Source: Escherichia coli (GTDB taxonomy: Bacteria; Pseudomonadota; Gammaproteobacteria; Enterobacterales; Enterobacteriaceae). From it: a stretch of DNA of 64,000 nt. Of the stretch, positions 21,171-21,340 are shown in pieces. A model generated the notes under the pieces. The model worked only from the letters and a program-made list of their open reading frames with translations. It was not told the DNA's origin and ran no database searches. The position numbers were made by a program, and so were the translations under genes. How positions within the stretch are numbered: position 1 is the stretch's first letter; every line of letters starts with the position of its first letter. The DNA is taken from the NCBI RefSeq assembly GCF_029227855.1, contig NZ_CP074356.1. One strand, written 5' to 3'.

Positions 21171-21340
21171 GACAGAAAACCAAAACCGGCTTCATAAGAA
21201 GTCGGTTTGAGATTACTGACGAAGTGGTTTACGGGGCCGGTTTTCCCCCTCGCCCTCTCCCCGGAGGGGCGAGGGGACTGTCTGTGCTGCTCCCAGCATT
21301 GGCATTGGACGGAACCTATTTTGACTCGACAAGACGTCCG

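Follow-up and report, generated by a model that had tools for sequence, protein, structure and literature searches.

A Candidate Terminator Hairpin and an Apparent Relic of a BoxC Repeat Pair in the gudD-barA Spacer of Escherichia coli

Introduction

What are the two palindromes that lie between the convergent genes gudD and barA in this stretch of the Escherichia coli genome, and does either of them end the transcripts that enter the spacer from both sides? A preliminary description, based on the letters of the sequence, took them for tandem hairpins, probably a bidirectional terminator region and possibly a REP-like element. Both are considered here within the window, meaning the whole stretch of 64,000 nucleotides that was analysed, and in related genomes. 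It is probable that the spacer combines two unrelated elements: hairpin 1, an ancestral 3'-end module that would serve as a shared terminator, and a GC palindrome that would be the relic of a collapsed BoxC pair. Everything at the locus belongs to known kinds; what is specific to it is a polymorphism of three alleles and a deletion junction that can be read to the base.

The Spacer and Its Neighbourhood

The open reading frame of gudD (19806..21170, + strand) ends in a TAA stop codon at 21168-21170, while barA occupies 21341-24097 on the - strand, with its TAA stop codon at 21341..21343. The convergent spacer between them comprises 170 bp (21171-21340). The gene names are those of an identical RefSeq genome; strain Z1323HEC0462, which matches a 321-nt query around the site at 100%, has both gudD and barA annotated there. 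The coordinates of the reading frames and the annotation of the 100%-identical genome agree, and confirm the convergent arrangement that had been proposed for the flanks. The following features are found in the spacer.

21176..21185, 5' of hairpin 1: A-tract AAAACCAAAA; read on the - strand it gives UUUUGGUUUU, the U-rich tail behind the hairpin in barA-sense RNA
21183..21208, both strands: hairpin 1, AAACCGGCTTC-ATAA-GAAGTCGGTTT, 11 pairs including one G.T, with a 4-nt loop
21206..21214, + strand: weak T-rich tail TTTGAGATT, the gudD-sense tail of hairpin 1
21233..21288, either strand: span homologous to the BoxC/PIT/TMECO repeat, with the family flanks ..GGTTTT (left) and ACTGTCTG.GC (right)
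21245..21277, both strands: GC palindrome, CCCCTCGCCC...GGGCGAGGGG, with perfect 10-nt arms (21246-21255 and 21267-21276) and a small inner stem
21253..21256, either strand: CCCT microhomology at the deletion junction, where an identical 86-nt prefix and 87-nt suffix overlap by 4 nt
21285..21298, either strand: small hairpin of 5-6 bp, about -6 kcal/mol, no U-tract
21307..21339, either strand: weak barA-proximal stem GGACG...CGTCC, about -6 to -7 kcal/mol, no U-tract

A 186-nt region covering the spacer folds beyond its dinucleotide shuffles (z = -4.0 on the + strand and -3.1 on the - strand). Both palindromes that had been described as tandem hairpins are present in the sequence and both exceed chance; only the placing of the second needs to be shifted by one base, since its 30-mer lies at 21247-21276. 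A 32-nt frame slid along the + strand of the 64-kb window gave 31,985 segments, among which the GC palindrome ranks first in stability (-26.5 kcal/mol) and hairpin 1 falls within the top 0.4%.

Searches for known RNA genes leave the spacer uncovered. In an Rfam E-value search of positions 20800-21700, the best hits reached 14-19.5 bits where the thresholds are 40-82 bits, and none of them had an E value below 0.31; a gathering scan of the whole window returned CsrB and sok alone, with nothing over the spacer. A strict consensus scan found 0 promoters and 0 terminators (the latter within 20900-21700); an independent sRNA gene is therefore unlikely, and a terminator call has to lean on relaxed scoring. 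Two open reading frames on the + strand (21155-21391 and 21207-21494) overlap the spacer and run antisense into barA.

The wider window holds several elements that can be recorded here. The CsrB sRNA gene (14715-15074, + strand; RF00018, 382.9 bits) is ~6 kb away from barA, and csrB is activated by BarA-UvrY signalling. The match to the sok antitoxin RNA (51241-51398, + strand; RF01794, 111.7 bits) implies a locus of the hok/sok type. A CRISPR array at 34170-34685 carries the E. coli type I-E repeat GAGTTCCCCGCGCCAGCGGGGATAAACCG with a period of 61, and a further copy of this repeat forms a stable hairpin at about 60621-60652.

Hairpin 1 as a Candidate Shared Terminator

Hairpin 1 starts 12 nt past the gudD stop codon. 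It resembles the bidirectional intrinsic terminators of convergent genes in having a near-symmetric, GC-containing stem flanked by an A-tract and, on the opposite side, by a T-tract, in its position just behind gudD, and in its conservation across Escherichia. It departs from them in that its gudD-sense T-tract is short and interrupted and the barA-sense stem of the window allele has an A.C mismatch. The module is passed over by the strict terminator scan, in which at least 5 T in 8 nt and a stem free of mismatches are demanded; the gudD-sense tail, UUUGAGAUU, is weak. When scored in a relaxed, TransTerm-like manner, the gudD-sense hairpin has a core dG of -11.0 and the tail TTTGAGATT with a score of -3.68 (4 T in the first 8 nt), and the barA-sense hairpin has a core dG of -7.1, owing to the A.C mismatch, and the tail TTTTGGTTTTCTG with a score of -4.76 (6 T in the first 8 nt). 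The K-12 version reaches -13.7 in the gudD sense and -12.5 in the barA sense, compared with -11.0 and -7.1 in the window. The minimum-energy fold of the barA-sense RNA pairs 21244-21236 with 21190-21182 and is favoured over the local hairpin 1 by 1.5 kcal/mol; both folds present an identical 3' arm before the U-tract.

The hairpin is found in K-12, O45:H2, E69, E. whittamii, and two other Escherichia sp. Across seven Escherichia sequences, 98.7% of the pair cells of the stem are retained, with one compensatory pair (C-G to U-A) and three one-sided wobble changes, and the A-tract is substituted at 21176 and 21181 only. As a test of covariation this is a weak control, with one compensatory pair in seven closely related sequences and an equal score in 60 of 500 shuffles. 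A GC hairpin directly 3' of the gudD stop codon is also seen in Salmonella, Klebsiella, Kosakonia, Phytobacter, and Pseudescherichia, and is present even in genera where another gene parts gudD from barA. This extra gene, which makes the gap 1.2-1.3 kb long in Salmonella, Pseudescherichia, Pluralibacter, Kosakonia, and Phytobacter, is missing in Escherichia; its product, which starts MKIVIAPDSYKES.., looks like a glycerate kinase.

From its structure and conservation, hairpin 1 is the best candidate for a shared bidirectional intrinsic terminator of gudD and barA, and most likely works as one. The segment 21176-21214, i.e., hairpin 1 with its A- and T-tracts, would be the ancestral 3'-end module of the locus. 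In the gudD sense, the 11-bp stem that lies 12 nt past the stop codon, followed by UUUGAGAUU, would end the gudD transcript. In the barA sense, the stem, weakened by its one A.C mismatch and followed by UUUUGGUUUUCUG, would end the barA transcript, leaving a barA 3'UTR of about 165 nt. The Term-seq supplementary data that were searched contain no record of a gudD or barA 3' end (none in TERMITe 2025, and in Adams 2021 only an unrelated site upstream of barA), and a full-text literature search returned nothing relevant on a terminator between the two genes.

A second, barA-proximal hairpin, AAACCGACTTC-ATAA-GAAGCCGGTTTTT, lies about 15-45 nt from the barA stop codon in E. coli E69 and E. whittamii. 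It has good U-tracts on both strands and a dG of -11.6 in the barA sense, and a decayed copy is seen in K-12. Hairpin 1 of the window equals this hairpin in stem and loop except at one paired position (A..C versus G..T). The gudD-proximal hairpin of the window thus looks as if it had been converted to, or derived from, the barA-proximal type.

The GC Palindrome and the BoxC Family

The GC palindrome has an RNA dG of -26.2 on both strands, and as single-stranded DNA its hairpin reaches -14.8 kcal/mol (z = -3.1); 0.00 matches to the palindrome pattern are expected in shuffles. It has no U-tract on either strand (tails ACUGUCUG / ACTGTCTG on the + strand and GAAAACCG on the - strand, with scores of -2.05 and -1.50), and for this reason it is neither a canonical terminator nor a terminator in its own right. 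According to an earlier study cited by Holder et al. (2015, PMC4666352), PIT elements, the repeat family discussed below, have no promoter or terminator activity; that result concerns intact elements and not a relic with a perfect stem. Of the two palindromes, then, a bidirectional terminator is plausible for hairpin 1 only, with its A-tract on the 5' side, its T-rich run on the 3' side, and its conserved stem, and the terminator region first suggested shrinks to that element.

The suggestion of a REP-like element was half right. REP and BIME elements and the GC palindrome are alike as dispersed, extragenic, GC-rich palindromes in 3' untranslated spacers, but the family, the arm sequence, and the architecture differ. 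The REP consensus, which we take to be GCCKGATGCGRCG...CGYCTTATCMGGCCTAC solely on the strength of its matches elsewhere, has no match in 21171-21340. The same assumed consensus matches the window at 43824-43860 and 50327-50358 and, as a gapped pattern, the centre of the K-12-type spacer (L001 3893-3922), so that an apparently true REP sits at the equivalent position there. A further stable hairpin, GCCGGATGCGACG...CGTATCCGGC at 7385-7416 of the window, is a REP-like palindrome by its hairpin stability only.

Homology places the element in another family. By blastn, the span 21233-21288 occurs at a median of 6 places per E. coli genome. It aligns, conserved flanks included, with copies at fabI-ycjD, ppc-argE, yabI-thiQ, ygfF-gcvP, gldA-yijF, and alx-sstT, the first three of which have ...TTTTCCCCTCACCCTAACCCTCTCCCCGGAGGGGCGAGGGGACTGTCCGTGC in common with the window; all family copies that were fetched are intergenic. 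This is the repeat known as BoxC, PIT, or TMECO. The BoxC motif was first noted in the 1990s, PIT elements go back to Maher and co-workers (2000), and TMECO to Holder et al. (2015, PMC4666352), who equate the three. They give the pattern as CCCTCNCCC-N3-6-GGGNGAGGG-N3-GGGNGAGGG and count 23 copies in K-12, where five sites are inverted pairs of a type A and a type B element.

The full three-block pattern has 0 matches in the window, and a two-block core matches at 21253-21275. To judge from these comparisons, the GC palindrome is homologous to BoxC/PIT/TMECO but lacks the defining three-block pattern, and is filed here as a deletion relic of a BoxC pair and not as a member of the family. Because the third G-block is deleted, an intrastrand triplex of the G-rich strand of the relic is not expected.

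Collapse of an Inverted BoxC Pair

Three alleles of the spacer are in circulation. Of 5,426 complete E. coli genomes, nearly all align with the coding flanks, but only 189 also do so across the centre of the spacer. K-12 and most other strains have a spacer of 231 bp in which hairpin 1 and the ~20 nt next to the barA stop codon (about 21321-21340) are retained and the centre is unrelated; K-12 has no BoxC at gudD-barA. A search with the spacer alone found 194 genomes of the BoxC type among the 5,426, and about 96% of E. coli have the REP-type spacer of 231 bp instead. The collapsed allele of the window is present in 13 of the 5,426 genomes, which are the 13 best matches and align in one piece of 169-170 nt. 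Among the matches listed, all BoxC-type genomes beyond these 13 align in two pieces spanning 239 nt, which is the pair form (~180 genomes, about 3% of E. coli). A REP-type spacer of 230-234 bp is also found in E. whittamii, in two other Escherichia species-level genomes, and in E. coli E69; it is therefore probably the ancestral type in the genus.

This REP-type spacer is BIME-like in E69 (L019), E. whittamii (L032), a further sequence (L041), and K-12 (L001 3815-4045), with a second inverted REP, GCCTGATGCGCTACGCTTATCAGGCCTAC. An AT-rich linker, TTTTTTAATTCATTGAATTTAATTGGTTTT, precedes the right-hand REP, and the left REP is decayed in K-12. That the K-12-type centre was inverted to give the BoxC-type spacer was considered and rejected, since, apart from the hairpins, neither strand showed homology in blastn-short.

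The pair form is represented by the 240-bp allele of strain AREA_499 (L008), which contains two full and mutually inverted TMECO motifs, at 534-568 (+) and 598-632 (-) of that sequence. One of them has a TTA second loop (type A) and the other is similar to type B; the second loop of the left unit is GCG compared with the published CCG. The paired module, ~125 bp long, is found again at ygfF-gcvP, gldA-yijF, and alx-sstT. Compared with the 240-bp allele, the window spacer differs only in one terminal base and in a gap of exactly 70 bp, whose breakpoints lie within the imperfect direct repeats CCCTCGCCCT and CCCTAACCCT. As a chimera, the GC palindrome combines the C-block of the left (+) unit with the C-block, loop, and G-block of the right (-) unit. 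Since the paired module is typical of the family at other loci and the form in the window is chimeric of both units, the change was a deletion. The outer stem is perfect because the deletion brought the left unit's outer C-block directly up to the hairpin of the right one.

This comparison of alleles shows that the GC palindrome is what a 70-bp deletion left of an inverted BoxC/PIT/TMECO pair. The event between CCCTCGCCCT and CCCTAACCCT removed the inner blocks of the pair together with the sequence between its units and so created the perfect palindrome, and its cause may have been replication slippage across a hairpin-forming inverted repeat. The collapse into a simple hairpin fits the "palindrome effect" of Holder et al. 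(2015, PMC4666352; Suppl. Fig. S6), whereby inverted TMECO pairs often lose their inner parts and leave a stem-loop, which the authors speculatively put down to replication problems at non-B DNA. Neither the deletion relic nor the polymorphism of the spacer was within the view of a first reading of a single sequence.

The BoxC pair at ygfF-gcvP varies in length in four strains, where matches extend over 126, 124, 121, and 115 nt. In strain 2013C-3277, one unit of this pair has lost its third block to a 6-bp deletion, a further example of instability.

The gudX-gudD tract (within 18400-21200) is ~4% off K-12, and 200 nt of it contain as many as 18 mismatches; for gudP and barA the difference is ~1.3%. 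This divergent block stops at the spacer. The pattern suggests a gudXD haplotype, recombinant or ancient, with which the BoxC-type spacer arrived or in which it persisted.

Other Readings of the Spacer

That both hairpins act as tandem terminators, with the GC palindrome as a second stop for barA transcripts and for gudD read-through, is unlikely. Such a stop could rely on the most stable local structure in the window, one with a very high stability on either strand (-26.2 kcal/mol) and a position that both transcripts have to cross. Stem-loops devoid of a U-tract do coincide with steady-state 3' ends in E. coli, but these ends are put down to trimming by exonucleases and not to termination (PMC6061677). 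The tails ACUGUCUG and GAAAACCG provide no U-tract, as their scores of -2.05 and -1.50 show, the BoxC/PIT family is reported to lack terminator activity (cited in PMC4666352), and the same two genes are expressed in the about 96% of E. coli from which the GC palindrome is missing. It is also quite unlikely that termination is mainly the work of head-on RNA polymerase collisions or of Rho, with the hairpins setting only the processed 3' ends. The negative result of the strict terminator scan at the spacer would agree with this, but hairpin 1 is conserved and has the layout of A-tract, stem, and T-tract of a bidirectional intrinsic terminator. We also count against collisions that gudD presumably needs induction and that barA is presumably expressed at a low level. 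A preprint (bioRxiv 10.1101/2022.10.23.513370, citing Ju et al. 2019) ascribes to collisions the overlapping bidirectional stops of convergent E. coli pairs that are neither intrinsic-like nor Rho-dependent, and describes such termination as more efficient for highly expressed pairs.

Next to no weight is given to the view that the GC palindrome is a functional DNA element (a cruciform, a triplex, or a protein site, in recombination or nucleoid organisation) or a REP. The stability of its single-stranded DNA hairpin (-14.8 kcal/mol, z = -3.1) would suit such an element. The triplex pattern is broken by the missing third G-block, though, Holder et al. (2015, PMC4666352) saw no triplex footprint in vivo, and a form present in only 13 of 5,426 genomes argues against a conserved role; the REP consensus is unmatched in the spacer while matching elsewhere in the window and in the K-12 spacer.

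A more adventurous scheme is very unlikely. It would make the spacer a preferred landing or exchange site for palindromic repeats, with a hairpin-targeted spread of BoxC and a collapse selected to tune the stability of the barA 3'UTR and thereby BarA-UvrY-CsrB signalling. Depending on the lineage, a REP/BIME or a BoxC pair occupies the same slot, beside copies of the terminator-type hairpin AAACCGGCT...AGCCGGTTT.

Possible Role and Implications

Most likely, the GC palindrome is a relic without an evolved function. A hairpin of -26 kcal/mol would, at most, be a block to 3'-5' exonucleases or a pause site for RNA polymerase, as are REPs and other U-less stem-loops; an exonuclease barrier is an established effect of REP RNA and the likely one for the relic. 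Dar and Sorek (2018, PMC6061677) found stable stem-loops devoid of a U-tract at the steady-state 3' ends of Rho-dependent E. coli transcripts, where they protect from PNPase and RNase II; annotated REPs made up only 24% of them. The relic could therefore be a passive barrier of this kind. Once transcribed, it would be at most a passive obstacle to 3' exonucleases, chiefly in the barA 3'UTR.

Outside annotation, the significance of the locus is small. The label is corrected from REP to BoxC/TMECO relic, and of the two hairpins only one is a credible terminator. The locus also provides a base-exact natural case of the instability of inverted BoxC pairs, a loss of 70 bp at a 4-nt microhomology with the progenitor allele still in circulation. 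The three alleles, i.e., REP-type, BoxC pair, and collapsed hairpin, form a natural comparison for the effects of repeats on the 3' ends and the stability of barA and gudD mRNA.
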